Source of the DNA: Okeania sp.
GTDB lineage: Bacteria; Cyanobacteriota; Cyanobacteriia; Cyanobacteriales; Microcoleaceae
DNA length: 32,000 bases
Direction of reading: 5' to 3'
Assembly (NCBI RefSeq): GCF_035285525.1
Contig: NZ_JAYKGW010000257.1
Coordinates: 17,397-49,396, forward strand
Shown: one piece after another, positions 3,201 to 32,000 of the stretch
How positions within the stretch are numbered: the first letter of the stretch is position 1
Layout of the letters: each line of letters opens with the position of its first letter
Notes under the pieces: model-generated
Told to the model about the DNA's origin: nothing
Seen by the model: only the letters and a program-made list of their open reading frames with translations
Database searches by the model: none
Program-made: the position numbers and the translations under genes

Positions 3201-6200
3201 CACCAATAATATTTACATTACCGCCATTACCTTTTCTGGAGGAAGATGCTAACTCACCATTGGTTGTATTAATAGCTCCTGTTTCACTTTTGATAAAAAT
3301 TTCTCCTCCGTTGCCTGTGCCAACGGTTCCGGAAAAATCAGAACGAGAGTCAATGTCAGCAAGATTAATGTCGCCTTTACTAATAATGGTGACGTTGCCT
3401 GCATTTCCGTTTTGACTGTAGGAAACTATTTCTCCGGTGCTGGTGACGGTTCCTTCTCTACTCTGAATGGTAATGTTACCACCAGGATTTTCTTCTACAT
3501 CTTCAACTTGAGATTGAGTTATAGTCAAGTCTGCTTCCTTGTTTCTAAAGGAGGATCTATCTTCTGGGTCTCCTGCTGAAGAAAGTATTTCACTGGTACT
3601 AATATCACCTGTAGCAGTGATCTCAATATTACCTGCTGCTCCTTTACGAGAAAATGATTCAATTTCTTGGGTTTGAATGTTTTCTTGACTATTTAAAGTA
3701 ATTGCACCTCCTGAACCGTCTTCTGCTCTAGAAGATATTTTTTTTCCTATTTCTATTCCCCCTGTAGTGCTTTCTATTTCAATATCACCACCTTTTCCAT
3801 AGCGATCGCTTCGAGTATTAATTTCATCTTCTATGATAATGTCACTATGACTTTTGATGGTAACGTTGCCTCCATCGTTAAGGTCGGCGAGACTATTTAT
3901 TTCTTTCTGTATGGTGACACTACCTTCTGCACTGGTAACGGTAATATCACCACTCCTGCCTCCATTTGTTTGGGTTGGGGAAATTGGTTCTTCAGGGTTG
4001 CCAGCGGTGGAAAGAAGTTTAGCGGTGGTAATGTTGCCTTCTGCTTCAATGTTAATATTACCTCCATTACTCTGACGAGAGAATGATTCTAAATTCCCTC
4101 TTTCTATTTCAATGGTTCCTCCAGCTCTGAGGGTGATGTCTCCTCCATTTCCCATACCACTTTCATTGTTTGAGATTGCTTCGCTATCGCTCGCAATGAC
4201 AGATGATGATTCCTCTTGGTCTTCAAATTCTGCTCCAGCAAAGGATGAAATATTGTTAGCTTGGATATTTCCCTGAGTCGCAGTAATACTGACACTTCCA
4301 GCATTCCCATTAAAGGATGAGGATATCAGGTCGCCGTTACTGGTATCAATATTTCCCTTGGTACTTTGGAGGGCAATATTTCCCCCATTACCGTTATCAT
4401 CAGAACGGGAATCTATATTACCTGTAGTTATGTCTAAGTTGCTGGTAATATTTATATGTCCAGCATTTCTTAACCCAGAAAAAGAGCTAAGAAAACCGCT
4501 ACTGGTATCAATATTTCCATTCATACTTTCTAGGGTTATGTTGCCACCTTGACCACTACTATTGGCACGAGAATCTATACTTCCTGTGGTTAAGTTACCA
4601 CTGCTAGTAATTTTGACGCTTCCAGCATTTCCCAACTCCGAAAAAGAAGACAGTTCACCTCTGCTAGTATTAACATTTTGATTTTGACTTTCTAAAGTAA
4701 TATCTCCACCTTTACCATCTCCTTTGGAACGAGAATCTATATTACTGGTTGTGAGATTGCCAGAACTTTGAATATTAATATTACCGCCATCACCACTTCC
4801 AGAAGAAGAAGATAACTCACTATCAATAGTTATAGCACCTGTATTGCTCTTGATGAAAATATCACCCCCATCACTATTGGTATTAGCACGAGAATTAATA
4901 GTCGCTGTTTCCTCCTCTGTTTGGTTATTAAGGATTTCAATATCTCCATGACCTTTAATAGTGATATTACCACCCTTGCTGGTAGCACCAAAACTTTCTA
5001 TTTCTGAATTAATAGTTACTGCACCCTCTGTACTTTCAATGATAATGTTCCCTCCTTGACCTATGTTGTCTGAACGGGAGTCAATATTTGCTAATGCTTT
5101 GGTTTCATTGTCACCAATATTAATATCACGAACGGCTTCGATAGTTATATTACCACCATTACCAGAACTGGCAAAACTATTAATTTCTCCTGTGGTGGTT
5201 ACTGCACCTGCTGTACTCTTAATATTAATATCACCACCATTAGCACTATTGCTCTGATTCTCGGTTGTTGATGTGGGGTTATTATTTTCGGGGTCTCCAG
5301 CAGTAGAAATAATAACGTTGGTAACAATATCACCCGTTGCTTCTAAACTGATATTTCCTCCAGAACCATTACGAGAAAATGACGTCAAACTAGACTCTGA
5401 CTCTGTTCCAGCAGTAGTATCAATATCTCCTCCTGCGGTCAAAGTAATATTTCCCCCATTACCAAAATTTCCAGTTCCCGTAAAATCAGAATCTATTGCA
5501 GCACCAAGCTCTTGACCTGCAAAAGAAGAAATATTGCCCGTAGTGATATTGCCATCACTGGTAATACTTATATTACCTGCATTCCCTGTCAGGGAAGAAG
5601 AGATAAGTTCACCATTACTGGTATCAACATTACCAGTCTTGCTTTCGAGAGTAATATTTCCACCCTGAACATTTTCTGAACTAGAATTAATATTACCAGC
5701 AATTAAACTTCCATCACTTTTGACTGTCACATTACCCGCTGTTCCGTCCAGAGAGAGAGAAGATATTTGTGCATCTCCGGCAACACCAGTAGTATCTATA
5801 CTGCCGTTGGTACTTTCAATGGTGACATCTCCACCATTACCACCAGATGTTGCTGACTCAATAGTTTCGGTATTAATATTTCTAGCAGCTTTAATGCTGA
5901 CATTTCCTGCATTTCCACCGACGGCAACAGTATCTATTTCTTTCGTAAGAGTCACCTTACCTTCTTTACTTTCAATAATAATATCACCACCATTCTTATT
6001 ATTTGTGATCGTATTTTCAGCAGTTTCTGTTGTGTCTGTGTTGCCAACATTACCAACAATAGGGTTGCCCGCAGAAGAAAAAACACCCCCAGTAGTAATA
6101 TCACCCTTGCTAGTAATACTAACTCTACCCGCACCACCCAACCGAGAAAATGATTCCAACGTTCCAGCCCTAGTATCTATATTTCCCTCTGCTGTCAGAG

Positions 6201-8931
6201 TAATATTTCCTCCATTTCCATCTGCTGTCTGGGGTTGGTCAAAACTAACATCACTGTCATCGAATGGTGATGAATTTCCTAAATCTCCCTGTTGGTCTAG
6301 TGCTTCGCCCGCAGAAGAAAATATATCTGCTGTAGTAATATCGCCCTCACTGGTGATCGTAACATTTCCAGCATTACCTCCAACAGAAAAAGAAACTATT
6401 TCGTCCCTACTGGTATTAACATTTCCACCTGTACTTTCTAGAGTAATATTGCCACCATTACCACCACCATTGGAGCGGGAGTCGATATAACCTGTAGTTA
6501 AATTGTTATCGCTCGTAATAGTAACATCCCCACCATTACCTTGAAGGGAAGCAGAAAATATTGCACCTGCGGTTGTATTAACTTTACCGCCACTATTTAT
6601 AGTAATATCTCCACCCTTATTATTTCCTTGAGTAGAAGCATTAATATCTCCAGTTCTAATATTACCATTTGCATCGAGAAATATATTCCCACCACTGGTT
6701 GAAATTGAATTAGCTTTCAGGGTAGTTTCAGTAGTATTAATATTCCCGCTGCTAAAAATATTAATATTCCCTGGTTGACCATTAGGAACTGATGTAGTTA
6801 TCTCTTCAATTGCAGTAAAATTACCATTAATATTTAACTCTAAATTGCCTCCACCTCTAACTTTAATCCCAGCAAAATCATCACTAACTTCACCGATAAT
6901 TAAATTATTTATAGAATTAATAAATACCCCTTTTTCTCCTGCTAATACTTCTAAATTATTTACATCTATTCGCAAAGGTGCTTCCGCCAAACCTACACCA
7001 CCAATATCTTGAGTTTGAAATATTGCTTGGTCGGCAGTAATTAAAGAATTAAGAGAAACTTGGTTAATATTGCCTTGATTAGCATTAAGAAAAACTTGAC
7101 CAGTAGTTATTAAACCAGCCAGATTTATATCACCATTATCTCCTAAATTTCCTAGTTCAATTGTGATATTTCCACTACCTGCATCTAAAGTTGTTCCTGC
7201 TTTTTGATTAATAGAAGCTGCCCCTGGTTCGCGACCATTAATATCAACTCCATCATCATTTCCCAAAAGAGTAATATCACCATTGCCACTAGACGTATTT
7301 ATATCAGCATTTAGATTAATATTTCGTCCAGCTTTTAACTCTATAGACTCCAAAGACTCAGAAGTTTCTATTGATTGATTAACAGTTATATCATTGTCAG
7401 CTTCCAAACTAATATTACCCTCTAATTCTCCTATTTTTTCAGCAGAAAATGTTTGAAACTCCCCTGATTCCCCCTTCAAAGAAAGAGATGTTTCCGCTCC
7501 AATAATTATATTTTTTGGGTCAAATAATATAGTCCCTCCTTCTCCTAATGCTGCACTAACATTAACATTCCCATCAAAAATTAATCGCTCCTTGCCAGAT
7601 ACTTCAACAAACCCTCCATTACCAAAAAATTCTCCTCCTTTAGCACTAATATTTCCAGAAAAATTAGTAGTATTATCAGACCAAATTATCACTCGACCGC
7701 CATTACCATTATTAATAGCATTGGCAGAAATAAAAGAGTTATTATTAACAAAAGTTTGTAGAGAATTAGGAACTATTCCATTGCCTTGGAAGTCGCCTCC
7801 AATTAATATATTTCCTCCTCCATTTAAACCATTGGCATTAATGTTGGCGTCTATTATTGCTATTTGGGAACCTAAGATGTTAATTTGTCCACCTTTTTGG
7901 GTTATATCCCCCCTAACCCCCCTTTGAAAGGGGGGGACTGGCTCTCCCCTTTGAAAGGGGGGGACTGGCTCTCCCCTTTGGAACGGGGGAATGTGGGATA
8001 CATCTATATTTCCAGAAATTACCACAGGAGCAAGATGATCCCACTGTTGTACCGTTGTATCTGTCAAAACCAAATTACCTTCAGCATCAACCATTACAGA
8101 TGAGGCGCTGTATCCCCCCTGACCCCCCTTTGAAAGGGGGGAACCTGTTAACAGTTGTGGTAACGATAACAGTGTAATCGACTCTCCCAACAAATTAACA
8201 GCAGCAGGCGATATATCCAAACTTAAAACATGACCTGGTTGAGAGATGCGCAAAACATCTCCACCATTAACCGCAGCGATCGTAATATTTCCACCCGCTG
8301 TAGAAAGTTCCCCTGTATTGACAACCGTGCCGCCAGTCAGAGTAAGATTATTTCCTGGATTTAAAGTTAAATTTCCTTGGTTAACTATAGCCCCTGGGTT
8401 AGAAACATCAAAACGATACCCACTGGGATTACCCACTAAATTTGAGTAGTTGTTTGTACCTAGTGTTTGAAACCAAAAATTATTGTTATCGAAACCAATA
8501 CCCGTGGCAGTAGTAACACTAAAAGAAGCAGGAACATTAAGACTAGCATTAGGGCCAAACATTATACCAGCAGGGTTCATTAAGAAAAGATTAGAATTGC
8601 CACCAATTACTTGAATCAGACCATTAATAGTAGAAGCATTTCCCCCTGTGACTCTACCCAGGATATTCTGAATGTCTGGGGTAGTCAGAAAGTTAGCAGT
8701 TTGATTAGATTTAACATTAAATTCGCCAAAACTGTGAAATAGGTTAGCACCGTCGTTACTAGGAGAGCCACCTTCGATATTAAATTGGTTGCCATTTTGA
8801 TTGACAGTAGTTCCTGTACCGTCCGTTGCTGGAGTAATAGACTGGGAATGAGCGGGGATGGCGACTGTTCCTAACAGGGAAGTCAAAGCCATCAGGGGAT
8901 AAAGATGTAATTTTAAGAGCTTCATTTGCAT
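208..8931 (-). CDS. Giant secreted TpsA/FhaB-like exoprotein: signal peptide, TPS (haemagglutination-activity) domain, long Gly/Asn-rich beta-helical repeat region, Pro/Asn-rich linker and C-terminal CHAT protease domain
   Basis: Uninterrupted 2,939-codon ORF. The likely true start is Met33 of the track ORF (ATG at 8929..8931), giving MQMKLLKLHLYPLMALTSLLGTVAIPAHSQ, a classic signal peptide. The 32 codons upstream lie in dispersed repeat DNA. TPS-type motifs are ANLFHSFGEFNV and NPAGIMFGPNASLNV. Dozens of degenerate GGNITL.S..GN..T / GNAGNV.I.S repeats follow. The C-terminus has a CHAT His/Cys dyad. Confidence 0.9.
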   Translation of the reverse strand: MQMKLLKLHLYPLMALTSLLGTVAIPAHSQSITPATDGTGTTVNQNGNQFNIEGGSPSNDGANLFHSFGEFNVKSNQTANFLTTPDIQNILGRVTGGNASTINGLIQVIGGNSNLFLMNPAGIMFGPNASLNVPASFSVTTATGIGFDNNNFWFQTLGTNNYSNLVGNPSGYRFDVSNPGAIVNQGNLTLNPGNNLTLTGGTVVNTGELSTAGGNITIAAVNGGDVLRISQPGHVLSLDISPAAVNLLGESITLLSLPQLLTGSPLSKGGQGGYSASSVMVDAEGNLVLTDTTVQQWDHLAPVVISGNIDVSHIPPFQRGEPVPPFQRGEPVPPFQRGVRGDITQKGGQINILGSQIAIIDANINANGLNGGGNILIGGDFQGNGIVPNSLQTFVNNNSFISANAINNGNGGRVIIWSDNTTNFSGNISAKGGEFFGNGGFVEVSGKERLIFDGNVNVSAALGEGGTILFDPKNIIIGAETSLSLKGESGEFQTFSAEKIGELEGNISLEADNDITVNQSIETSESLESIELKAGRNINLNADINTSSGNGDITLLGNDDGVDINGREPGAASINQKAGTTLDAGSGNITIELGNLGDNGDINLAGLITTGQVFLNANQGNINQVSLNSLITADQAIFQTQDIGGVGLAEAPLRIDVNNLEVLAGEKGVFINSINNLIIGEVSDDFAGIKVRGGGNLELNINGNFTAIEEITTSVPNGQPGNINIFSSGNINTTETTLKANSISTSGGNIFLDANGNIRTGDINASTQGNNKGGDITINSGGKVNTTAGAIFSASLQGNGGDVTITSDNNLTTGYIDSRSNGGGNGGNITLESTGGNVNTSRDEIVSFSVGGNAGNVTITSEGDITTADIFSSAGEALDQQGDLGNSSPFDDSDVSFDQPQTADGNGGNITLTAEGNIDTRAGTLESFSRLGGAGRVSITSKGDITTGGVFSSAGNPIVGNVGNTDTTETAENTITNNKNGGDIIIESKEGKVTLTKEIDTVAVGGNAGNVSIKAARNINTETIESATSGGNGGDVTIESTNGSIDTTGVAGDAQISSLSLDGTAGNVTVKSDGSLIAGNINSSSENVQGGNITLESKTGNVDTSNGELISSSLTGNAGNISITSDGNITTGNISSFAGQELGAAIDSDFTGTGNFGNGGNITLTAGGDIDTTAGTESESSLTSFSRNGSGGNISLEATGDIVTNVIISTAGDPENNNPTSTTENQSNSANGGDINIKSTAGAVTTTGEINSFASSGNGGNITIEAVRDINIGDNETKALANIDSRSDNIGQGGNIIIESTEGAVTINSEIESFGATSKGGNITIKGHGDIEILNNQTEEETATINSRANTNSDGGDIFIKSNTGAITIDSELSSSSGSGDGGNINIQSSGNLTTSNIDSRSKGDGKGGDITLESQNQNVNTSRGELSSFSELGNAGSVKITSSGNLTTGSIDSRANSSGQGGNITLESMNGNIDTSSGFLSSFSGLRNAGHINITSNLDITTGNIDSRSDDNGNGGNIALQSTKGNIDTSNGDLISSSFNGNAGSVSITATQGNIQANNISSFAGAEFEDQEESSSVIASDSEAISNNESGMGNGGDITLRAGGTIEIERGNLESFSRQSNGGNINIEAEGNITTAKLLSTAGNPEEPISPTQTNGGRSGDITVTSAEGSVTIQKEINSLADLNDGGNVTIKSHSDIIIEDEINTRSDRYGKGGDIEIESTTGGIEIGKKISSRAEDGSGGAITLNSQENIQTQEIESFSRKGAAGNIEITATGDISTSEILSSAGDPEDRSSFRNKEADLTITQSQVEDVEENPGGNITIQSREGTVTSTGEIVSYSQNGNAGNVTIISKGDINLADIDSRSDFSGTVGTGNGGEIFIKSETGAINTTNGELASSSRKGNGGNVNIIGADNIEVENISSFSESNGNGGNVNIASGSDVTTATISSSAESNGQGGNIFISADGAIDTSIGELSSFSTAGQGGNITLSATTNISTGFIESFSGGGTRGGDITLDTINGNIDTTAGLLNGEANISTNADVSSENIATIFAEEPANLSSYAPEGSGGNIFIIQRGEGNITTSNISSFGGENSGTVNIINNNGNINTEVIFSTGINRAGGFISLQTQENGNLNINHIATYSSGANGTGGDINLDASGIVNINNVASFGNAGSGNVNIQSISGSINTGTIQTRAPNGTSGNIALNTFSTQGDIRTANVTTQGGTAAGKVEIIAADGSVTTQDLESSSESGTAGGIEVQAGENIETGDQTVDSGTGDANITNIADGNITTGDQTAITENGDANIANIADQNITTGDQTAITENGDANITNIADRNITTGDQTAITENGDANITNIADRNITTGDQTAITENGDANITNIADRNITTGDITPIGNIRDIINLLADSLNTGEIISINPSIDNTLLEALPQIPVTLPNLEEPPTPITNGALNSIATKIIQSVQNNSSIRTTNNPNPLNKKSDRQTNNINPNLPTHININTVNTTPLTVAASSQTIINIEQNRTNEFADYFQSDLYNQTISTQNIREVLTKIASQTGNNSAIIYITAYPDSLQLVLYTPGSDPILKTIPQINRKELMETVLNLRAEITNPLRRDSHSYLPPAQKLYKWLIAPIAAELETAKINTLLFSMDNGLRTLPMAALHDGEQFLIEKYSLSLIPSISLMDTNYRPLQNTQILAMGASQFIDKNPLPAVPTELETISQEIWQGNKFLNQEFTRDNLLGQRQNYPYPIIHLATHAEFRPGKANNSYIQLWGTEQLKLDQIRELGWNEPAVELLVLSACRTAFGDKDAELGFAGLAVAAGVKSALASIWYVSDEGTLALMTEFYTHLNRTKIKAEALRQAQLSMLRGEVVIADGELRGTGVRGVVVLPSGLGQFENKNLSHPYYWSGFTMVGSPW
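211..1401 (-). other. CHAT (caspase-like) protease module at the C-terminus of the giant protein
   Basis: Typical CHAT layout: EQNRTNEFADYF...IIYITAYPDSLQLVL...LLFSMDNGLRTLPMAALHDG...IIHLATHAEF (His codon at 691..693) ...VELLVLSACRTA (Cys codon at 559..561) ...SIWYVSDEGT...HPYYWSGFTMVGSPW. Confidence 0.8.
1783..2142. repeat. Five tandem 72-bp coding repeats (24 aa: GDQTAITENGDANITNIADRNITT) inside the giant gene
   Basis: Units are 1783-1854, 1855-1926, 1927-1998, 1999-2070 and 2071-2142. The first three differ by only 1-2 nt and the last is diverged. All are in frame. Confidence 0.95.
7903..8000. repeat. Dispersed palindromic mini-element (TATCCCCCCTAACCCCCCTTTGAAAGGGGGG) plus two further 27-bp tandem units, inserted in frame in the giant gene
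   Basis: Encodes HIPPFQRGEPVPPFQRGEPVPPFQRGVRGDIT. The same core occurs at 8111..8141 and, in reverse complement, in the intergenic stretch 25807..25833. Confidence 0.85.
8040..8844 (-). other. TPS / haemagglutination-activity secretion domain of the giant protein (approximate bounds)
   Basis: Sequence ITPATDGTGTTVNQNGNQFNIEGGSPSNDGANLFHSFGEFNV...GRVTGGNASTINGLIQV...NLFLMNPAGIMFGPNASLNVPASF matches the conserved N-terminal TpsA pattern (N.F..F...., NP.G. motifs) directly after the signal peptide. Confidence 0.75.
8111..8141. repeat. Second in-frame copy of the palindromic mini-element (TATCCCCCCTGACCCCCCTTTGAAAGGGGGG) in the giant gene
   Basis: Near-identical to 7903..7937 and to the reverse complement of 25807..25833. 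Encodes SPLSKGGQGGYS. Confidence 0.8.
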
Positions 8932-8935
8932 TTTT

Positions 8936-8958
8936 AGGGAACACTTAACTGGGAACAG
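8936..8958. repeat. Dispersed 25-bp motif CCCTGTTCCCAGTTAAGTGTTCCCT (reverse-complement copy here)
   Basis: Other copies are at 12148..12172 and 21993..22017. This copy ends 5 nt upstream of the proposed start codon of the giant gene. Confidence 0.8.
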
Positions 8959-8959
8959 T

Positions 8960-9057
8960 ATGAACGCTATTAGTAGGGTGTGTTTCGCTACGCGACATGA
9001 AAAGCCCACTTCGTCAGGCATCGACACACTATATATAGTACCTTTGCGTAACTCCTG
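8960..9057. mobile_element. 5'-truncated copy of a ~90-bp MITE family (full TIRs CAGGACTTACGCA ... TGCGTAAGTCCTG)
   Basis: ATGAACGCTATTAGTAGGGTG...TATATATAG..CTTTGCGTAACTCCTG aligns with the full copy at 12186..12274. It lacks the left TIR. Confidence 0.7.
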
Positions 9058-10619: not shown

Positions 10620-11741
10620 TTAGGAAAATTCATCTAAAATGAAATCCTCTGCGCTAATACTTGGCGCACCTTTCAAAGTAGCTATTTTGTTGCCACCGCC
10701 CAAACCAGGTAGGGCACCGTTGGCATTATAATATAAATCTCCAGTGGAGCGAACGTAAACGATATCTGCTACAGAACCAGCAACGGCTTTTTTGTTTTTT
10801 ACTGATGCAAATTCTCGCTCAATACTAAATCCTTTTCCTACTTCACTACCAAGAGTGATAAAAGTATCTGTATTGAGAACAATATTGTCAACATTGGGTC
10901 GAAAATCTGTGATAGTATCAACGCCCAAGTCTTCTCTCCTGTAAGCTCTGTTGCTGCCTATCAGAAAATCATCTGCACCGCCACCACCTGTTAATGTATC
11001 GTTTCCGGCGCCACCGAATAGTTCGTCAGCACCACCACGACCGATTAAAGTATCGTTACCGTTTCCGCCATTGATTCTCTCAGCTTGATTAGTTCCTCGG
11101 AGTCGGTTGTTTTCATTATCACCGTTCATAGTTCTATTGGGGCCTGGATCAGAACTGGAAAACTCCCATTCCAGAAGAGCTAGACTGTTTCTATAATCAT
11201 AACCACCGAAGCCAACATAAGCCTTGTTACCGATAATACCTTCAATATCGACTTTTGTAGACAACAAAGGATTTTTAGGTTTAGTAGTCGTGGTAGATGT
11301 AAAAACTTTTAGTCGATCATTCTTGCTCTTATATTCAATCCAAACATTAATCTCTTCATCGCGCTCTAAGTCTAAATCGTCAGGTTGAACTGAAACTAAA
11401 GGTATAGGACTACCGTTGGTATTAATTAAAATACCCTGTAAACTGTCTAATTCTACAGCTACACTTGATAAAATTCCTACGCCACTATCAAAAGAGTGAG
11501 TTGCTACAGCAATATCTTCTCTTGGATCGTCATGTAGTATGAATGTTAAACCAGTGTTTTGTCCTACTTGATATCGAAAATTGGTTTCAAAAGAAGTATC
11601 TTCATCAAACCTAATTTGTTCAGAAAAAAAGGCACTACCTTTATTTTGATCGTTAGCATCAAACTCTAAAGTCTGGCCTATTCTAGCTGCTCCTTCATTA
11701 AAAGTAAACTCGAAAAAGTTGTTAGAACTTAATTTAACCAT
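10620..11741 (-). CDS. Secreted lectin-like (ConA/legume-lectin fold) domain protein with C-terminal RTX calcium-binding repeats
   Basis: The N-terminal 200 aa have a lectin-like pattern (FNEGAARIGQTLEF...GSAFFSEQIRF...SFETNFRYQV...GLTFILHDDP...VAVELDS). These are followed by GGNGNDTLIGRGGADELFGGAGNDTLTGGGGADDF (GGxGxD nonapeptides) and a DIVYVRSTGDLYYNANG tail. There is no N-terminal signal peptide, which is consistent with a type I secretion substrate. Confidence 0.85.
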   Translation of the reverse strand: MVKLSSNNFFEFTFNEGAARIGQTLEFDANDQNKGSAFFSEQIRFDEDTSFETNFRYQVGQNTGLTFILHDDPREDIAVATHSFDSGVGILSSVAVELDSLQGILINTNGSPIPLVSVQPDDLDLERDEEINVWIEYKSKNDRLKVFTSTTTTKPKNPLLSTKVDIEGIIGNKAYVGFGGYDYRNSLALLEWEFSSSDPGPNRTMNGDNENNRLRGTNQAERINGGNGNDTLIGRGGADELFGGAGNDTLTGGGGADDFLIGSNRAYRREDLGVDTITDFRPNVDNIVLNTDTFITLGSEVGKGFSIEREFASVKNKKAVAGSVADIVYVRSTGDLYYNANGALPGLGGGNKIATLKGAPSISAEDFILDEFS

Positions 11742-17455: not shown

Positions 17456-18886
17456 ATGGTATCAACCCCATCTAAAATAACTACAATAACTACTAATTCA
17501 GGGCTTCAGTATCTACCAAAATTAGGAGGTTCTATCAAAGAAAGTTCACCTAATCAAGAACTTTTACCACTTACTGCTAAAGTCAATAATTTAGACCATT
17601 TAGAAATCGGAGGTTGGGATGTCCCAGGATTAGTGGAGAAATTTGGCTCACCTTTGTATATTGTGGACGAATATACTCTCAGAACAGCTTGTCGTCAATA
17701 TAGAGAGGCACTAAAACAATATTATCCTGGAGAATCTTTGGTACTTTATGCTTCCAAAGCTTGGAATAGTTTAGCAATATGTGCCCTATGTGGTTCTGAA
17801 GGTTTAGGAATAGATGTTGTATCTGGAGGAGAATTATATACAGCTCTTCAAGCAGGTGTTAAATCGGAAAAAATATATTTTCATGGCAACAATAAATCTG
17901 TAGCTGAATTAAATCTTGCCATTGAAACAGATTGTATAATTGTTGTAGATAACTGGCTAGAATTAGAAACATTAGCAGCTTTAAAAAAGGAACAAAAAGA
18001 GCAACTACAAAATCCTACTAAAATAATGATCAGGTTAACGCCTGGTATTGAGTGTCATACCCATGAATACATTCGTACAGGTCATCTAGATAGTAAGTTT
18101 GGATTTGACCCTAATCAATTGAATGATGTTTTTGCCTTCATTAGTAAACAAGAATTACTATCATTTATTGGTATTCATGCTCATATAGGTTCCCAAATTT
18201 TTGAAATTCAACCCCATCAAGATTTAGCAGATGTAATGGTAGATGCAATAACAACTGCTTCAGTACATAATTTATCAATCAAAGAAATTAATATTGGTGG
18301 AGGTTTAGGAATCCGTTATACTGAAGCAGATGACCCACCTAGTATTGAAACTTGGGTTCAGAAAGTTAGTACAGCAATGGTAGATGCTTGTCAAAGTAAA
18401 CAATTACCATTACCTAAACTATTATGTGAGCCAGGACGGTCAATAATTGGACCAGCCTGTGTTACAGCTTATACTGTAGGGTCTCAAAAACAAATTCCGG
18501 AAATTAGAACTTATATATCTGTAGATGGAGGAATGTCAGATAATCCTCGGCCAATAACTTATCAATCAGTTTATCGAGCCGTTGTAGCTAATAAATTATC
18601 TGAACCAAGCACAGAAACAGTTACTATAGCTGGTAAACACTGTGAATCTGGTGATGTTCTAATTAAAAATGCTAACTTACCAGTTACTCAACCAGGAGAT
18701 TGTTTAGTAGTTATGACTACAGGTGCTTATAACTATAGTATGGCTTCTAACTATAATCGAGTACCACGTCCAGCAGCAGTTTTGGTAGGCAATAATGAAG
18801 TTAATGTAATTTTGCAAAGGGAAACCTACCAAGATTTACTGAATCAAGATATTTTACCCGAAAGAATAACTATGGGTGTTCAATAA
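17456..18886 (+). CDS. lysA: Diaminopimelate decarboxylase
   Basis: 476 aa. PLP-dependent Orn/DAP/Arg decarboxylase motifs YASKAW, HAHIGSQ, GGGLGIRY, EPGRSI, CESGDVL and GAYNYSMASNYN. Confidence 0.95.
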   Translation: MVSTPSKITTITTNSGLQYLPKLGGSIKESSPNQELLPLTAKVNNLDHLEIGGWDVPGLVEKFGSPLYIVDEYTLRTACRQYREALKQYYPGESLVLYASKAWNSLAICALCGSEGLGIDVVSGGELYTALQAGVKSEKIYFHGNNKSVAELNLAIETDCIIVVDNWLELETLAALKKEQKEQLQNPTKIMIRLTPGIECHTHEYIRTGHLDSKFGFDPNQLNDVFAFISKQELLSFIGIHAHIGSQIFEIQPHQDLADVMVDAITTASVHNLSIKEINIGGGLGIRYTEADDPPSIETWVQKVSTAMVDACQSKQLPLPKLLCEPGRSIIGPACVTAYTVGSQKQIPEIRTYISVDGGMSDNPRPITYQSVYRAVVANKLSEPSTETVTIAGKHCESGDVLIKNANLPVTQPGDCLVVMTTGAYNYSMASNYNRVPRPAAVLVGNNEVNVILQRETYQDLLNQDILPERITMGVQ

Positions 18887-19110
18887 TGGATAATTGATAA
18901 TTACTTCTCCTGAAAAGGAAGAAGATTTAATCAAAGGAAGAAGTCTATTTTTTTTCCTTTTAAAGGGAAGGCTTTAAACCTGAATTATTTAATTATTCGG
19001 TAATAGTATTTAATTGGTAACAGAAAGCTAAAAGAAATCACAATTAATCTGTTACCAGCGTAAAAGAGAGTAAATTAAAAGTTGATATTAGATTAATAAT
19101 TGAAAGTTAA

Positions 19111-20028
19111 ATGAAATCGGGTCTTAGTAATGACCCAGGCTTGATGAAGTCCTTATTAATACACAGTATTGATATTGGACTGGTTCTCGCTCTGATATAT
19201 ATGGTGTTGGTCATCATAGGGGAACGTCGTACACTATGGATGGTAAGGGGCTTTATAGTCTTAATGTTAGCCTCTGCTCTAAGTCATTCGGCTGGATTAA
19301 GACTATTAAGTTTTGCCCTTAACAGTCTAGTGATCGGTTCTGCTGTCTCTATGGCAGTTATATTACAATCAGAATTTCGTAGGTTTCTCGAACAGTTAGG
19401 ACAAGGAGAAATTCTGCAAATGTTTGGACGCCATCGTCCACCTTTACCTGAATCAGATAATATTATTGATGTAATAGTCGAGGCAATCAAACAATTGTCC
19501 CAAAATCGGATAGGTGCTTTGTTAATTATAGAAACAAATGGACCGATTGATGAAAGGGATTTTTCTGTACCTGGGGTAAAGTTAAATGCTGAACTTTCTC
19601 GTGAACTATTACAAACTATATTTCAGCCCAAAACTTTATTACATGATGGAGCAGTTCTAATTAGAGAACATAAGATTATCTCGGCTGGTGTGATTTTACC
19701 ACTGTCTGAGAAAATAGCTTCTAGGCAATTAGGGACTCGTCATAGAGCAGCTATGGGAATTACAGAACAAGTGGAAAGATGTCTCTGTATAGTAGTGTCT
19801 GAAGAAACTGGTTCTATTTCTCTGGCTGAAAAAGGAATCTTGAATCGGCCTTTAACAGGTAATAAACTAAAGGAGTTATTAGAGGAACGTCTATTTCTAT
19901 CAGGTAGTGAAAAAAATACAAAATCAATCCCTATATTTAGTCTGGGACGTCAAGTAGGATTAAAAGGATCGCAATTAATTTCATGGGTACTTCGTCAGAG
20001 TCCATCAGCTCCTCGAAAGAAAAGATGA
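19111..20028 (+). CDS. cdaA: Diadenylate cyclase CdaA (membrane-anchored DAC domain)
   Basis: Three N-terminal hydrophobic helices followed by a DAC domain with [20 protein letters not shown] and [12 protein letters not shown]. Confidence 0.9.
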
Positions 20029-20771
20029 ATCAAGGAACTTGTTTACAAGATTTACCTGTTGACTTAAAACCAGAAAAGTTGCCTCGCCATGTAGCTGTGA
20101 TTATGGATGGTAATGGTCGTTGGGCAAAAAATCGTGGTTTACCAAGGATTATGGGACATAGGCGTGGAGTGGAAGTCCTCAAGGATTTGCTACGATGTTG
20201 TAAGGATTGGGGTATAGAAGCATTAACTGCTTATGCTTTTTCTAGTGAAAATTGGGGCAGACCTCTGGAGGAAGTTAATTTTTTAATGACTTTGTTTGAA
20301 AAAGTTCTGTGTCGAGAGTTAAAAGAAATGGTGGCAGAAGATGTTCAAATTAGATTTGTTGGTAATTTGAGTTCTTTGCCTCTATCTTTACAAACTGAGA
20401 TTAAACGCTCAGTGGAAACAACTGGGCAAAATCAAGGGATTAAGTTTACTGTAGCTACTAATTATGGCGGACGTCAGGAAATTATACAAGCTTGTCGGGC
20501 GATCGCTACTCAAGTACAAGAAGGTTTACTTAAACCTGAAGAAATTAATGAAGCAATTTTTGAGAAATATCTTTATACTACTGGTATTTCTCATCCAGAT
20601 TTATTAATTCGTACCAGTGGTGAAATGCGAATTAGTAATTTTTTATTGTGGCAAATTGCTTATTCAGAAATTTATGTGACTGAGACATTTTGGCCTGATT
20701 TTAATCGTGCTGAGTTTCATCGTGCTTTATGTGCTTATCAGCAAAGAGAACGGAGATTTGGCAAAATTTAA
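20025..20771 (+). CDS. uppS: Isoprenyl transferase (undecaprenyl-diphosphate synthase)
   Basis: Motifs [27 protein letters not shown] and [21 protein letters not shown]. The preferred start is ATG at 20025, forming an ATGA overlap with the cdaA stop (20026..20028). The track ORF start at 19983 lies inside cdaA. Confidence 0.92.
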
Positions 20772-26202: not shown

Positions 26203-29200
26203 ATGAGAATATTAGTAACAGGTGGCGCAGGTTTTCTTGGTTCTCATCTCATCGATAGATTAATGGAACAAGGCCATGAAGTCCTCTGTCTGGATAATTT
26301 TTATACCGGAACTAAACGCAATATTTATAAATGGTTGAATCATCCCTATTTTGAATTAATTCGTCACGATATTACAGAACCAATTAGATTAGAAGCAGAT
26401 CAAATATATCATCTAGCTTGTCCTGCTAGTCCAGTACATTATCAATTTAATCCTGTCAAGACAATTAAAACTAATGTGATGGGAACTTTGAATATGTTGG
26501 GGTTAGCTAAAAGGGTTAAAGCTAGATTTTTTTTGGCTTCGACATCTGAGGTTTATGGAGATCCGGATGTACATCCTCAAACAGAAGATTATAGAGGTAA
26601 TGTTAATTGTATTGGGATTCGTAGTTGTTTTGATCCGGAAACGGAAATTTTAACGGAAGCAGGTTGGATAGCTTTTCCCGATTTACAACCAGATGTTAAA
26701 GTCGCAACATTAAACCCAGAGGGTAAGGTTGAATATCATATTCCTGATGAATATATTGTACAACCATATATTGGGGAAATGTATCGTTTTGCTAATGCTA
26801 AATTTGATTTTTGTGTAACTCCTAATCATTGGATGTATGTCCGGAGTGAGACAGATCATTTAAAGTTTATCAGAGCGGATGAAGATAAACATTGGCACAG
26901 TTGGCGGGCATTAACTGGAGGAGATTTTGGAGGAGAAGAGTTAGAATGGTTTGAGTTAGGAACTCCTCCTAGAAATGCTAAAGTAAAAGTAGAAAAAATC
27001 CCCATGGATGACTGGTTAGAATTTTTGGGTTATTACATTTCTGAAGGTTGCGTTGATGTGAAAAAAAGAGCGCGAGTGGTAGGAGGAAATGATTATGATG
27101 TGGCAGATTATAATGTTTTAATTGCTCAAGAAAATTCTGAGGGACGTTTAAAAATTGCTAATTGTTTAAGTCGTTTAGGATTTAAGTTTTTTGATGGGGA
27201 CGAGCATCAATTTCAAATTTGCAGTAAACAGTTAGCTGAGGTTTTATTACCTTTAGGTAAGTCTGGTGATAAATACATTCCTCGTGAGTTATTTGAACTA
27301 TCAAAAAGACAGTTATTAATCCTATTTAATGCTCTAATATTGGGGGATGGTTCGGAACGAGGAAATTGCTTTACTTACTATAGTAAATCTAAACAATTAG
27401 CAGATGATGTACAAGAATTAGCACTTCGTTGTGGTTATGCAGCTTCGGTAGTTTCTCATGCTATTGGGCGCGACCTTTATCGAGTGAATATTCGACCTGC
27501 TAAGGATGCAAGTTTAGTTGAACCAGAACGTTTCCATTATGTAGGAAAAGTTTATTGTGTTAATGTCACAAATCATGTAGTTTTTGTCAGGAGAAATGGT
27601 CGTGCTGCTTGGTGCGGTCAATGTTACGACGAAGGGAAGCGAGTAGCAGAAACTTTGGCATTTGATTACCATCGTCAAAATAAAGTTGATATTCGAGTAG
27701 TCAGAATTTTTAATAGTTTGACTGGAGACCAAAAGGTACTTTATTATATTTGTGAAAAACTCTATTATGAAACTTTTGCTGAGTGTTATGAAAGGATTAA
27801 TGGAGATATATCTAATGTTTCAGTGCCTTGTTTTGATGAAAATTCCCGGACAGTAATTAAACCAATTTCTGCTATTTGGAAACATCATGTTAAGAAGAAG
27901 GGTTTCAAGATTAAAACTCTTTGGGGTAAGGAGATAAAAATTACTGAAGACCATAGTTTATTTACTAGGGATGAAAATGATCGACCTCAAGCAGCTTTTG
28001 GCAGTGAATTAAAGGTGGGAGATGAAATTGGAGTTCCTAGTTATATTAGCTTTTTGGAACAAACTTTACAACCATTCCACATTACAGATAAGATATTAAG
28101 CAAAGCAGAAATATCTGTAGAAAGTCAAGAGACTATTTCCTATCTAGAAAAATATGGAGATAAAATTCGGGAGTATTTATTGGCAAAAGGTCTAAATCCC
28201 GAACAACTTTATTCTACCTTGAAAAATTACGAAGCAACAAATCAAATTCCTTGGCATCTATGGGAATATTTAGAACTGCCTTTACCTGAAAAAGAAAAAA
28301 TTTGCTATTCATCTACAAAAGCAGTTAAAAATTCGATAAGCAACGTAGAAGACTTTTTATGGTTATTAGGGTTTTATGTGTCTAAAGGAAGTTTGATAAA
28401 TAATCAAATTGTTTTCAAAGGAGAAGCTGAAAAATTATCAGAAGTAATAGAGAGAATATTTGATTTTCAGCCAGAAATTAATGAATCAGGAGATGTAACG
28501 ATTGAGTCAAAAATTATAGTTGATTTAATTGCAGATGGATTTAATTTTGGCAGAAAAGAAAAAGATATTCCTAATTGGATTTTACAACTTCCTCCAAAAC
28601 AATTAATTAAATTTTTACAGGGATTTGCTGAAGGTAATGATGTAGAAGATAAATTAAGTTCAAAGTTCGAGTTTGAGAGCGATCGCCAGTTAGTTACTGA
28701 AAAGTTAGTTTTAATCTTTGCTAAGTTTGGGTTAGTAGCAAATGTTTCTGAAATAGAGGCACAAATCTATCGGATAACGGTAGAAGGATTAGAATATACT
28801 AATATCCAGAATTTGTCTAACGTTCAACAGAAAATATTAGCTAAAACAACAGGTGATATTGTTTGGGCAAAAATAGAAAGTATGGAAGAATTTGCCATAG
28901 ATGATTATGTCTATGATTTCTCTGTACCAAATTATGAGAACTTTATTGGGGGAACCTATAGCATTTTTGCTCATAATACTTATGGACCCAGAATGTTAGA
29001 AAATGATGGTCGAGTTGTTAGTAACTTTATCGTCCAAGCTTTACAAGGAATACCATTAACAGTGTATGGCGATGGTTCCCAAACCAGAAGTTTCTGTTAT
29101 GTTTCTGACCTAGTAGAAGGGTTTATCCGATTAATGAATCAAGACTTTATCGGACCAGTTAATATAGGAAACCCAGGAGAATATACTATATTAGAATTAG

Positions 29201-29397
29201 CTCAGAAAATTCAAGAAATGGTTAATCCAGATGCAGAGATAATATTTAAACCTCTGCCACAAGATGACCCGAAACAGCGACAACCAGATATTACTCGTGC
29301 TAGAAAATATTTAGGTTGGGAGCCTACTGTTCCTCTCGAAGAAGGGTTAAAATTAACTATAGAAGATTTTCGAGAGCGACTCAGAGATAATGAATAA
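26203..29397 (+). CDS. uxs: UDP-glucuronate decarboxylase (UXS, extended SDR) interrupted by two inteins
   Basis: The exteins (141 + 31 + 139 = 311 aa) read continuously as a UXS: [12 protein letters not shown] Rossmann motif, STSEVYGDP, ...IGIRS|[31 protein letters not shown]|[22 protein letters not shown]...[18 protein letters not shown]. Confidence 0.93.
26626..27621 (+). mobile_element. Intein 1 (332 aa) with a LAGLIDADG homing-endonuclease domain
   Basis: Block A is [14 protein letters not shown] (Cys1) and block B is VTPNHWMYV (TxxH). LAGLIDADG motifs are [11 protein letters not shown] and [11 protein letters not shown]. Blocks F and G are [24 protein letters not shown], followed by +1 Cys (CYDEGK). 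Confidence 0.9.
27715..28977 (+). mobile_element. Intein 2 (421 aa) with a degenerate LAGLIDADG domain
   Basis: Block A is [10 protein letters not shown] (Ser1) and block B is [10 protein letters not shown] (TxxH). LAGLIDADG-like motifs are [12 protein letters not shown] and [10 protein letters not shown]. Block F is [17 protein letters not shown] and block G is YSIFAHN, followed by +1 Thr (TYGPRM). Confidence 0.9.
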
Positions 29398-29559: not shown

Positions 29560-30927
29560 ATGCGTGTTTGCGTTATTGGTACTGGTTACGTTGGTTTAGT
29601 TACAGGAGTTTGTCTGTCTCATACAGGACATCATGTAATTTGTATAGACAACAACGAAGAAAAAGTTAAATTGTTAAAATCAGGACAGTCTCCAATCTAC
29701 GAACCGGGATTATCTGAACTAATGCAAAGTAGCACTCAAGCAGGGTTGCTAGAGTTTACATCTGACTTGAAAGCAGGAGTCGAACATGGTGATATTTTAT
29801 TTATTGCTGTGGGTACTCCTCCACTACCTACGGGAGAAAGTGATACTCGCTATGTGGAAGCGGTGGCAAAAGGTATTGGCGCTCACTTAACTACAGGTTA
29901 CAAAGTAATTGTTAATAAATCAACTGTACCTATTGGTTCTGGTGACTGGGTACGGAGGATTGTTTTAGATGGAGTTGAGGAACGTAAAAAAGAAGAAGGG
30001 GGAACTGCTGCAGAAATTGAAGCAGAATTTGATGTGGTGAGTAACCCAGAATTTTTGCGTGAAGGTTCTGCTATTTTTGATACTTTTAACCCAGACAGAA
30101 TCGTACTGGGAAGTAATAATCAAAAGGCTTTGGATATGATGCAGGAACTTTATGCACCTTTAGTAGAACGGAAGTTTGCTGACGATAAGTCTTTGCCACC
30201 AGTTCCAGTGGTAATTACAGATTTGAGTTCCGCAGAGATGATTAAATATGCTGCTAACTCTTTCTTGGCAACTAAGATTAGTTTTGTGAATGAGATTGCT
30301 AATATTTGCGATCGCGTTGGTGCAGATGTGGTTCAAGTATCTAAGGGTATTGGGTTAGACTCCCGTATTGGTAGTAAGTTTTTGCAAGCTGGTATTGGTT
30401 GGGGTGGTTCTTGTTTCCCTAAGGATGTTTCTGCTTTAGTTCATACTGCTGATGATTATGGTTGTGAAGCACAGTTGTTGAAAGCAGCGATTGATGTGAA
30501 TAAGCGTCAACGGATGATAACAGTGGATAAGTTGCAGCAGCATTTGAAAATTCTCAAAGGTAAGACTGTTGGGTTATTGGGTTTGACGTTTAAACCGGAT
30601 ACTGATGATATGCGAGATGCTCCTTCTCTAGATTTGATTCAAGAGTTGAACAGGTTGGGAGCGAAGGTGAAAGCTTACGATCCAATTATTTCTCAGTCTG
30701 GTATGCGTCATGGTTTAACAGGTGTGGTAGTTGAGACTGATGCGGAAAGACTTGCGGATCATTGCGATGCTTTGGTTTTGGTAACGGACTGGAAACAGTT
30801 TCGGCACTTAAATTATGCGAAGATGGTGAAGACGATGGAGCATAATTTGTTTGTTGATGGTCGTAATTTCTGCGATCGTAAAGAATTAGAAGCTGCTGGT
30901 TTTCAGTATGTGGGAATTGGTCATTAA
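29560..30927 (+). CDS. ugd: UDP-glucose 6-dehydrogenase
   Basis: 455 aa. N-terminal Rossmann motif VIGTGYVGLVTG, NPEFLREGSA, catalytic-Cys motif GWGGSCFPKD, and the C-terminal UDP-binding domain GLTFKPDTDDMRDAPS. Confidence 0.95.
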   Translation: MRVCVIGTGYVGLVTGVCLSHTGHHVICIDNNEEKVKLLKSGQSPIYEPGLSELMQSSTQAGLLEFTSDLKAGVEHGDILFIAVGTPPLPTGESDTRYVEAVAKGIGAHLTTGYKVIVNKSTVPIGSGDWVRRIVLDGVEERKKEEGGTAAEIEAEFDVVSNPEFLREGSAIFDTFNPDRIVLGSNNQKALDMMQELYAPLVERKFADDKSLPPVPVVITDLSSAEMIKYAANSFLATKISFVNEIANICDRVGADVVQVSKGIGLDSRIGSKFLQAGIGWGGSCFPKDVSALVHTADDYGCEAQLLKAAIDVNKRQRMITVDKLQQHLKILKGKTVGLLGLTFKPDTDDMRDAPSLDLIQELNRLGAKVKAYDPIISQSGMRHGLTGVVVETDAERLADHCDALVLVTDWKQFRHLNYAKMVKTMEHNLFVDGRNFCDRKELEAAGFQYVGIGH

Positions 30928-30973: not shown

Positions 30974-31008
30974 AAACCCGGTTTCTTTAAGAAACCGGGT
31001 TTCTTTGG
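30974..31008 (+). terminator. Probable intrinsic terminator of the uxs-ugd unit
   Basis: Perfect 12-bp stem AAACCCGGTTTC / GAAACCGGGTTT with a 5-nt loop, followed by the T-rich CTTTGGTT. It starts 47 nt after the ugd stop. Confidence 0.7.
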
Positions 31009-31480: not shown

Positions 31481-31537
31481 GGGGCGGGTTTTACCAGAGA
31501 TTTCCCTGTCTAATCTGAGATTTACCTAAACCCGCCC
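31481..31537. repeat. Solo GGGGCGGGTTT ... AAACCCGCCC hairpin module
   Basis: Same arms as 15841, 21645 and 25627 but with a different loop sequence. Confidence 0.8.
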
Positions 31538-31568
31538 TCTTCTCTATAACATCAAAATGTGATTGTAA

Positions 31569-32000
31569 GTGGGGGGCGGGTTTAGTTAGCTGACTGGGAA
31601 TACCATTAGCGCTATCTAATGTGGGGGAGAGGGTTTAGTTAGCTGACTGGGAACACCATTAGCGCTATGGTGAAACCCGCTCCTACTAATGTGGGAGAGG
31701 GTTTAGTTAGCTGACTGGGAACACCATTAGCGCTATGGTGAAACCCGCCCCTACTAATGTGGGGGGGCGGGTTTAGTTAGCTGACTGGGAACACCATTAG
31801 CGCTATGGTGAAACCCGCTCCTACTAATGTGGGGGGGGCGGGTTTAGTTAGCTGACTGGGAACACCGTTAGCGCTATCTAATGTGGGGGGCGGGTTTAGT
31901 TAGCTGACTGGGAACACCGTTAGCGCTATGGTGAAACCCGCCCCTACTAATGTGGGGGGGCGGGTTTAGTTAGCTGACTGGGAACACCATTAGCGCTATG
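31569..32000. repeat. Tandem array of at least 7 hairpin-module units (long 68-70 bp, short 52-54 bp), truncated by the window end
   Basis: Unit boundaries are 31569, 31621, 31691, 31759, 31829, 31883 and 31952. A long unit reads GTGGGGGGCGGGTTTAGTTAGCTGACTGGGAACACCATTAGCGCTATGGTGAAACCCGCCCCTACTAAT. Short units (1 and 5) lack the 3' arm. Units are about 95 percent identical over their full length. Confidence 0.9.

Follow-up and report, generated by a model that had tools for sequence, protein, structure and literature searches.

A UDP-glucuronate decarboxylase gene of Okeania sp. interrupted by two unrelated inteins that appear to stand at different stages of the intein life cycle

The stretch of Okeania sp. 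DNA analyzed here (32,000 nucleotides; contig NZ_JAYKGW010000257.1, positions 17,397 to 49,396; hereafter the window) contains a gene, uxs, which raises the question of how an active enzyme is obtained from a reading frame that consists mostly of inserted sequence. The uxs precursor is encoded by a single open reading frame (ORF) on the forward strand (26203..29397; 1064 aa plus stop), as are all elements of the gene described below, and represents a UDP-glucuronate decarboxylase (UXS) interrupted by two inteins, intein 1 and intein 2. The inteins account for 753 of the 1064 residues (70.8%), which agrees with the value of about 71% given in the first-pass annotation of this DNA. Our analysis indicates that, in all probability, the active 311-aa enzyme is obtained only after two unrelated class-1 inteins have excised themselves from the 1064-aa precursor, and that these inteins have reached different stages of the intein life cycle.

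To identify the host enzyme, residues 142-473 and 505-925 were cut out of the translated ORF, leaving a joined extein of 311 aa. Residues 2-307 of this sequence align to residues 7-312 of the intein-free human UXS1 (PDB 4gll) with zero gaps and 201 identical positions out of 306 (66%, E 3.4e-137). The best four matches of the joined extein in the PDB were all human UXS1 entries (E about 1e-137); the next was a UDP-glucose 4-epimerase (5e-42), and other extended short-chain dehydrogenases/reductases (SDRs) scored no better. Accordingly, the Pfam domains Epimerase and GDP_Man_Dehyd, which are split in two on the precursor, extend contiguously from end to end on the joined extein, while none of the NCBIfam equivalog models exceeded its cut-off on the host enzyme. 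The N-extein (aa 1-141; 26203..26625) and the C-extein (aa 926-1064; 28978..29394) each align to human UXS1 without a gap. The former carries the Rossmann motif GGAGFLGSH (26221..26247), providing the N-terminal GxxGxxG, and the catalytic Thr/Ser region STSEVYG (26539..26559), and the middle extein (aa 474-504, CYDEGK...RIFN; 27622..27714) holds the catalytic YxxxK in the form of YDEGK. Together with the proximity to characterized UXS proteins, these features support the assignment of the host enzyme to the UXS-type extended SDRs. Activity in the conversion of UDP-glucuronate to UDP-xylose is predicted, and the genetic context, with an adjacent and syntenic ugd gene, agrees with this function.

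As the extein aligns to human UXS1 without gaps, the insertion points of both inteins are fixed to the residue. The junctions read ...NCIGIRS|C...Q|CYDEGK... for intein 1, whose +1 Cys directly precedes the Tyr of YxxxK, and ...VRIFN|S...HN|TYGPRM... for intein 2. The first-pass annotation had placed the ORF, its residues and its motifs correctly to the base, had recognized that removal of both inserts leaves a colinear UXS of 311 aa, and had located the insertion sites next to the catalytic Tyr (C|YDEGK) and within RIFN|TYGP, with only 31 extein residues between the two inteins. Also the differing first residues (Cys1 and Ser1) and +1 residues (Cys and Thr) were as it had described.

Both inserts had been expected to be recognized by Hint and intein profile hidden Markov models (HMMs), and this held true for intein 2 (aa 505-925, 421 aa, SLTGDQ...SIFAHN; 27715..28977). 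Intein 2 displays all characteristics of a class-1 intein, namely Ser1, a block B TxxH (TEDH; 27937..27963), a terminal His-Asn, a Thr at +1 and matches to the curated HMMs: Pfam Intein_splicing at 77.9 bits (cut-off 35.8; 1e-21), TIGR01445 (intein_Nterm) at 36.3 bits (cut-off 24.5) and TIGR01443 (intein_Cterm) at 27.2 bits (cut-off 15.6). In a phmmer search, PI-PkoII (Thermococcus kodakarensis Pol intein-2, PDB 2cw7) was matched in the N-terminal Hint, the endonuclease and the C-terminal Hint regions. PI-PkoII was also the top Foldseek match of the AlphaFold model of intein 2 (pLDDT 91, pTM 0.90) with an E value of 2e-28 and a TM score of 0.77, followed by VMA inteins, PI-PfuI and PI-SceI, and hence is the best match of intein 2 in both structure and sequence.

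The identification of intein 1 (aa 142-473, 332 aa; 26626..27621) was less direct, and several observations speak against its being an intein. Neither Pfam Hint nor Intein_splicing gave a match to intein 1 by itself, TIGR intein_Nterm remained at 17.5 bits and thus below its cut-off of 24.5, and the sequence ends with Gly-Gln in place of the canonical His-Asn. When the intein 1 sequence was analyzed alone, the only Pfam domain to pass was LAGLIDADG_3 (4e-9), and phmmer against the PDB returned marginal matches only (E 0.09 or worse). To recognize intein 1, a profile built from its family and a modeled structure were required. The homologues of intein 1 amounted to 263. A part of them occupies the same UXS site, as alleles from other cyanobacteria, Deltaproteobacteria, Acidobacteria and a Woesearchaeote, and another part consists of full-length homologues of 30-40% identity, whose hosts include ThyX, ThyA-type thymidylate synthase, dCMP deaminase, PAPS reductase and M23 peptidases. 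An alignment of 18 members of this family revealed Cys1, the block-B His68, Cys311 and the C-terminal RRNG...CG as invariant, and Cys330 is invariant in the family as well. Searching the PDB with the profile of this alignment identified PI-PkoII (2e-14), VMA inteins (3e-12) and the AceL NrdHF intein (3e-7), so that PI-PkoII is among the top matches of this family, too.

The structure model pointed in the same direction. The AlphaFold (AF2) model of intein 1 (pLDDT 93, pTM 0.91) matched TliVMA, PI-PkoII, PhoVMA, PI-PfuI and PI-SceI in Foldseek at a probability of 1.0 and TM scores of 0.65-0.69. The top structural matches (E 7e-16, TM 0.69) were VMA inteins containing a homing endonuclease (TliVMA, 7qsu/7qss; PhoVMA, 7qst) and PI-SceI, which share the two-domain layout of Hint and LAGLIDADG with intein 1 at sequence identities of 10-18%; they differ from intein 1 in that the latter is compact (332 aa), ends with WCG(N/Q) and has a Gly for the penultimate His. 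The nuclease core of the model resembled I-DmoI (target TM 0.67) and the splicing core the hedgehog Hint domain (1at0; E 1e-4). With respect to class-1 inteins, intein 1 represents an in-frame insert whose removal restores the host protein, provides nucleophiles at positions 1 (Cys142) and +1 (Cys474), has a block B TxxH (TPNH, intein residues 65-68; 26815..26841) and adopts the Hint fold, and the same site is empty in related alleles. Judged by the family profile and the structure model, intein 1 is an intein.

The endonuclease part of intein 1 exhibits two LAGLIDADG motifs on the alpha-beta-beta-alpha-beta-beta-alpha fold, both with their acidic residues: the first (YISEGC; 27016..27051) retains Glu and the second (ILGDGS; 27322..27354) retains Asp. 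Within the 18-member alignment, L131, F133 and G141 of the first motif are invariant and the position before G141 is Glu or Asp in 18 of 18 sequences; in the second motif, G240 is invariant and D241 and G242 are conserved to at least 90%. Thus, the endonuclease motifs of intein 1 look intact, and cleavage activity is predicted.

The unusual C-terminus of intein 1, overlooked in the first-pass annotation, lies in blocks F and G (27550..27621). Throughout the family, the end motif reads RRNGxxxWCGN, with R, R, N, G, C and G being invariant, and is followed by Cys, Ser or Thr at +1 in all members. Hence, all family members have Gly where His would be the canonical penultimate residue, and a terminal Gln in place of the family Asn occurs in the window, in all alleles from Okeania, Hydrocoleum and Trichodesmium, in a Prochloron allele (P0058) and in a member from an unrelated host protein (P0041). 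Inteins without the penultimate His can be functional, and among inteins ending with Gln those of the Pyrococcus abyssi (Pab) and Methanoculleus marisnigri (Mma) PolII were found by experiment to splice slowly and that of the Chilo iridescent virus (CIV) ribonucleotide reductase (RNR) efficiently, with Gln cyclizing instead of Asn (PMC4031507). Since functional inteins with either deviation have been described (PMC4031507), we regard the Gly-Gln end as a variant state that does not exclude splicing. The PolII and RNR inteins belong to families unrelated to intein 1, and the Gln of intein 1 is a derived state within a family that otherwise uses Asn.

Two further members of the intein 1 family were observed in metagenomes. 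One, at the UXS site on an ENA contig of 40.6 kb (P0036), is missing the whole of the N-terminal splicing part (...NPIGPRA|DYNILIAQ...), with the endonuclease and the end ...FCGN|CYDEGK still present, and looks like a decayed, non-splicing intein or an assembly artefact. The other, from a JGI metagenome (P0105), is located at another site in a different SDR of the Epimerase/GDP_Man_Dehyd type (...HLVKLG|CYDDKTEVLT...), and its C-terminal motif is corrupted to WYGG for WCGN. SDRs acting on nucleoside diphosphate (NDP) sugars seem to be a recurrent niche for inteins.

As both inserts combine Hint and LAGLIDADG and are only 31 residues apart, one might assume that an intein was duplicated within the gene, or that the inserts are permanent domains which are never excised. 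However, a BLASTP comparison of intein 1 with intein 2 aligned nothing but the first LAGLIDADG motif (19 of 72 residues identical, E 0.007), by which a duplication origin was rejected, and the block sequences, the termini and the nearest relatives differ as well. While the intein 1 family is spread across many host proteins, the close relatives of intein 2 occupy the corresponding position (about 171-173 of the Epimerase profile) of UXS and other NDP-sugar SDRs, and its distant relatives are archaeal-type polymerase inteins, with a total of 715 matches at E <=1e-3. Alleles with intein 1 only (P0016, P0029) or intein 2 only (P0145 from Cyanaurora, P0146, P0150, P0152) are common, which is at odds with duplication and permanent domains alike. 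In addition, the inserts interrupt motifs for catalysis or substrate binding in an enzyme whose remaining sequence shares 66% identity with human UXS1, and retained insertions at these positions would therefore be incompatible with the UXS fold. We consider both assumptions hardly credible. As the inserts are unrelated in sequence and differ in family, host range and distribution, the data instead support two separate invasions of uxs, as proposed by the first-pass annotation from the different first residues, block sequences and +1 residues; searches with each intein also recovered alleles at the same sites in other genomes for both of them.

Whether the inteins splice was addressed by the ratios of non-synonymous to synonymous substitution (dN/dS), which were computed across 21 alleles. 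The ratio was 0.07 for the extein. In intein 1, it was 0.22 for the N-terminal part of Hint, 0.31 for the endonuclease region and 0.08 for the C-terminal part of Hint, and the corresponding values for intein 2 were 0.14, 0.31 and 0.08. The exteins and the C-terminal splicing blocks are thus under strong purifying selection, from which splicing of both inteins in vivo can be deduced indirectly. A different explanation would be that intein 1 with its Gly-Gln end no longer splices and that the alleles carrying it are non-functional or decaying copies of uxs. The non-canonical C-terminus and the Hint HMM scores under threshold would be in line with such a loss, and the extein dN/dS, at 0.084 among intein 1 carriers vs. 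0.047 among non-carriers, also counts somewhat against splicing, although this comparison is weak because the two groups differ in taxon composition. However, the value for carriers is far below 1, constraint on the C-terminal splicing block of intein 1 (0.08) equals that on the extein, and the full ORF is intact in 10 of 10 carriers from Okeania and Trichodesmium. Furthermore, the penultimate Gly occurs in the whole family, including members in essential hosts such as ThyX and ThyA, and inteins with a terminal Gln do splice (PMC4031507). A loss of splicing in intein 1 is, thus, very unlikely.

Splicing of both inteins, which we favor, would proceed as follows. In intein 1, Cys142 would undergo the N-S acyl shift and Cys474 the transesterification, and the intein would be released by cyclization of its last residue, Gln473, a role that falls to Asn in its relatives. 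Intein 2 would employ Ser505 and Thr926 and follow the canonical succinimide route via His-Asn925. The two reactions would restore the catalytic segment SCYDEGK and the segment RIFNTYGP, respectively.

The arrangement of two inteins in close succession, one of which has a terminal Gln, could also be taken to indicate that splicing is conditional. According to this explanation, splicing of one or both inteins would depend on redox state or stress, the activity of UXS and the supply of UDP-xylose for glycans or sheath would be regulated post-translationally, and the Gln would tune or order the reactions. Among UXS alleles with intein 1, the terminal Gln always occurs with the intein 2 site occupied (11 of 11) and the terminal Asn always with the intein 2 site empty (17 of 17). 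Moreover, the inteins are only 31 residues apart, Cys1, Cys311 and Cys330 are invariant in the intein 1 family and occur next to a +1 Cys, and in Pab PolII the Gln terminus slows C-terminal cleavage, with disulfide switches being described for that intein, too (PMC4031507 and its ref. 79). However, the Gln alleles, from Prochloron and Microcoleaceae, form a single clade nested among the Asn alleles. The association of Gln with tandem inteins therefore amounts to one evolutionary event and carries no statistical weight, and it was rejected as statistical evidence of coupling. In addition, the Gln end also occurs in P0041, whose host is an unrelated protein that bears no second intein. We therefore consider conditional splicing improbable, and slightly more so the specific proposal that the exchange of Asn for Gln in intein 1 adapts the order or rate of its excision relative to intein 2 or provides redox control through Cys1, Cys330 and the +1 Cys. 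If it were true, the enzyme that forms UDP-xylose would mature under regulation, and splicing would not be a mere constitutive clean-up.

A working homing endonuclease had been assumed for both inteins by the first-pass annotation, which did not hold for intein 2. The acidic residues of LAGLIDADG motifs bind the catalytic metal ions, e.g., D21 and E117 in I-DmoI and D218 and D326 in PI-SceI. In intein 2, the first motif (FYVSKGS; 28354..28392) has Lys where its relatives and PI-PkoII have Glu, and the second (FAEGND; 28612..28641) has Asn where the relatives have the Asp of GDG. The LAGLIDADG fold itself is kept in the model (TM about 0.6 to I-DmoI as target, 0.77 to PI-PkoII), while Pfam LAGLIDADG_3 did not reach a match on intein 2 of the window. 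In comparison, PI-PkoII is an active endonuclease with both acids (LLGYYVSEGY, FIGDGD) and differs from intein 2 in host gene and domain of life. All intein 2 alleles of Trichodesmium, Okeania and Dapis have Lys, Gln or Arg at the first acidic position; the second is taken by Asn, Lys or Glu, with GN(D/N) in place of GDG. Glu and Asp are kept (...AEG..., ...GDG...) in the outgroup MAG82 and in P0144 and P0157. As the catalytic acidic residues are substituted, the nuclease of intein 2 is predicted to be inactive; it is probably dead and a degenerate member of the LAGLIDADG family by descent. The endonuclease region of intein 2 has also acquired indels. In Okeania sp. SIO3B5 (locus L015), an insert of 40 aa, IEEGVRSQESGVRRENCLWIASPNNFEHRVDGGVLNPQKK, is located exactly within the degenerate second LAGLIDADG motif, which is consistent with relaxed constraint on the endonuclease domain.

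To follow the two inteins among relatives, a scan for intein 2 was carried out with one genome per species and yielded 20 loci, all from cyanobacteria of the Microcoleaceae type, which comprise Okeania, Dapis, Trichodesmium including T. erythraeum IMS101 (NC_008312.1), and metagenome-assembled genomes (MAGs). The uxs ORF is intact in all 20. Intein 2, the query of the scan, occurs at the same site in 20 of 20 loci, and intein 1 is present in nine of them, as in the window, and absent from 11. On neighbor-joining trees of extein and intein 2 DNA, carriers and non-carriers of intein 1 are interleaved: Okeania SIO2F4, with intein 1, is the sister of Dapis M229, without it, and the carriers KiyG1 and SIO3B5 are positioned beside SIO2B3 and SIO1I7, which lack it.

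These patterns suggest that intein 2 has become fixed across the Trichodesmium/Okeania/Dapis clade with its nuclease acids lost. Since both catalytic acids are gone, it would persist only by having to keep splicing. The presence or absence of intein 1 in very close relatives may reflect ongoing or recent homing, or loss through recombination with empty alleles, and we infer from the predicted states of the endonucleases that the intein life cycle has advanced to a different stage in each of the two. Some results are less favorable to active homing of intein 1, however. The intein 1 tree resembles that of the host gene in rough outline, synonymous sites have diverged in intein 1 (about 0.30-0.34) almost as far as in the extein (about 0.41), and the flanks of its site in occupied vs. 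empty alleles displayed only synonymous variation and no diagnostic or immunizing substitutions. The patchy occurrence of intein 1 could, thus, stem from repeated loss and not from active homing. With nearly equal synonymous divergence and broadly congruent trees, nothing points to a very recent horizontal transfer of intein 1, and a recent transfer was dismissed as unsupported. A polymorphism of long standing, kept up within the lineage by homing and loss, agrees with the pattern better than an import in recent times.

Directly downstream of uxs, the gene ugd (29560..30927, forward strand) encodes a UDP-glucose 6-dehydrogenase with three UDPG_MGDP_dh Pfam domains. In a consensus scan, no terminator-like site was detected between uxs and ugd, and a terminator-like hairpin with a 13-bp stem follows ugd on the same strand (30974..31002). 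The gene order lepA-uxs-ugd is kept in the relatives, ugd being adjacent and syntenic in 19 of 20 loci. Ugd makes the substrate of UXS. The two genes are probably co-transcribed, as judged from their arrangement, in which case mature UXS and Ugd together would convert UDP-glucose to UDP-xylose.

The first-pass annotation had implied that a uxs gene with two inteins is rare or novel. The same arrangement, however, exists in T. erythraeum IMS101 and in eight other representative genomes. On the IMS101 chromosome (NC_008312.1, locus L016), the orthologous gene with both inteins has been public since 2006; its inteins occupy the same two sites and have identical ends (CGQ|C and AHN|T), and ugd follows downstream, as in the window. 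The IMS101 inteins are 336 and 430 aa in length compared to 332 and 421 aa in the window. Intein 2 is 73% identical at the protein level, the dN for intein 1 is 0.12, and by intein nomenclature the inteins of the window are alleles of those of IMS101. The latter are presumably the NDP-sugar epimerase/dehydratase inteins named Ter Ndse-1 and Ter Ndse-2 in InBase. The exact protein of the window is present in the public collection, its 90%-identity cluster consists of entries from Okeania, Hydrocoleum and Trichodesmium with 1064-1090 aa, and an entry from an Okeania sp. MAG is 100% identical across intein 2 and the C-extein. Full-text searches of a literature library found no paper describing these UXS inteins. 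Several independent inteins in one gene are likewise known from the same lineage, as the ribonucleotide reductase of T. erythraeum contains four (PMC1635734; PMC2874743). Other multi-intein hosts in cyanobacteria are genes of replication and nucleotide metabolism, whereas the host in the window is a nucleotide-sugar enzyme, a less common yet already populated niche. Taken together, the locus is an instance of a known phenomenon, i.e., standard class-1 inteins at sites that are occupied in many public sequences, and not a discovery.

The public annotation of uxs and its orthologues was found to be inconsistent (in the window, 27718..29397 and 26203..29397; P0136, P0006-P0009 and P0138-P0143). 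Older GenBank entries comprise 1070-1090 aa; many of those in RefSeq style cover a truncated 559-730 aa and carry the name 'GDP-mannose 4,6-dehydratase.' As start codon, the truncated entries use a TTG or ATG within the frame, located either shortly after the beginning of intein 2 (MTGDQKV...) or within intein 1 (MGDGSE...), with the full ORFs being intact in the DNA behind them.

With regard to the remainder of the window, an ORF of 2939 aa on the reverse strand (208..9027) encodes a giant secreted exoprotein of a type typical of filamentous cyanobacteria, with an N-terminal two-partner secretion (TPS) domain and a C-terminal CHAT protease domain. A protein of 373 aa, also encoded on the reverse strand (10620..11741), combines a legume-lectin domain with RTX calcium-binding repeats. 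Three genes on the forward strand (17456..20771) encode a pyridoxal phosphate (PLP)-dependent decarboxylase of the diaminopimelate/ornithine type, a DAC-domain diadenylate cyclase and an undecaprenyl diphosphate synthase; the ORFs of the latter two overlap by 46 nt (19983..20028). Scanning the whole window for Rfam families and tRNAs gave no matches. The end of the window (31500..32000) has a G+C content of 0.51 vs. 0.31-0.42 across the rest of the last 8 kb, and neither tRNAs nor Rfam families nor long ORFs were detected therein.

The uxs locus thereby brings together, in one gene, two stages of the homing cycle: intein 2, which is fixed and has a nuclease that is probably dead, and intein 1, which is polymorphic among sibling genomes and has a nuclease that looks intact. 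This makes the pair a convenient natural system for studying how inteins persist. The natural, well-conserved Gly-Gln end of intein 1 inside a family ending with Gly-Asn offers a ready pair for mechanistic comparison, and recognition of the inteins corrects the gene model of the orthologues.

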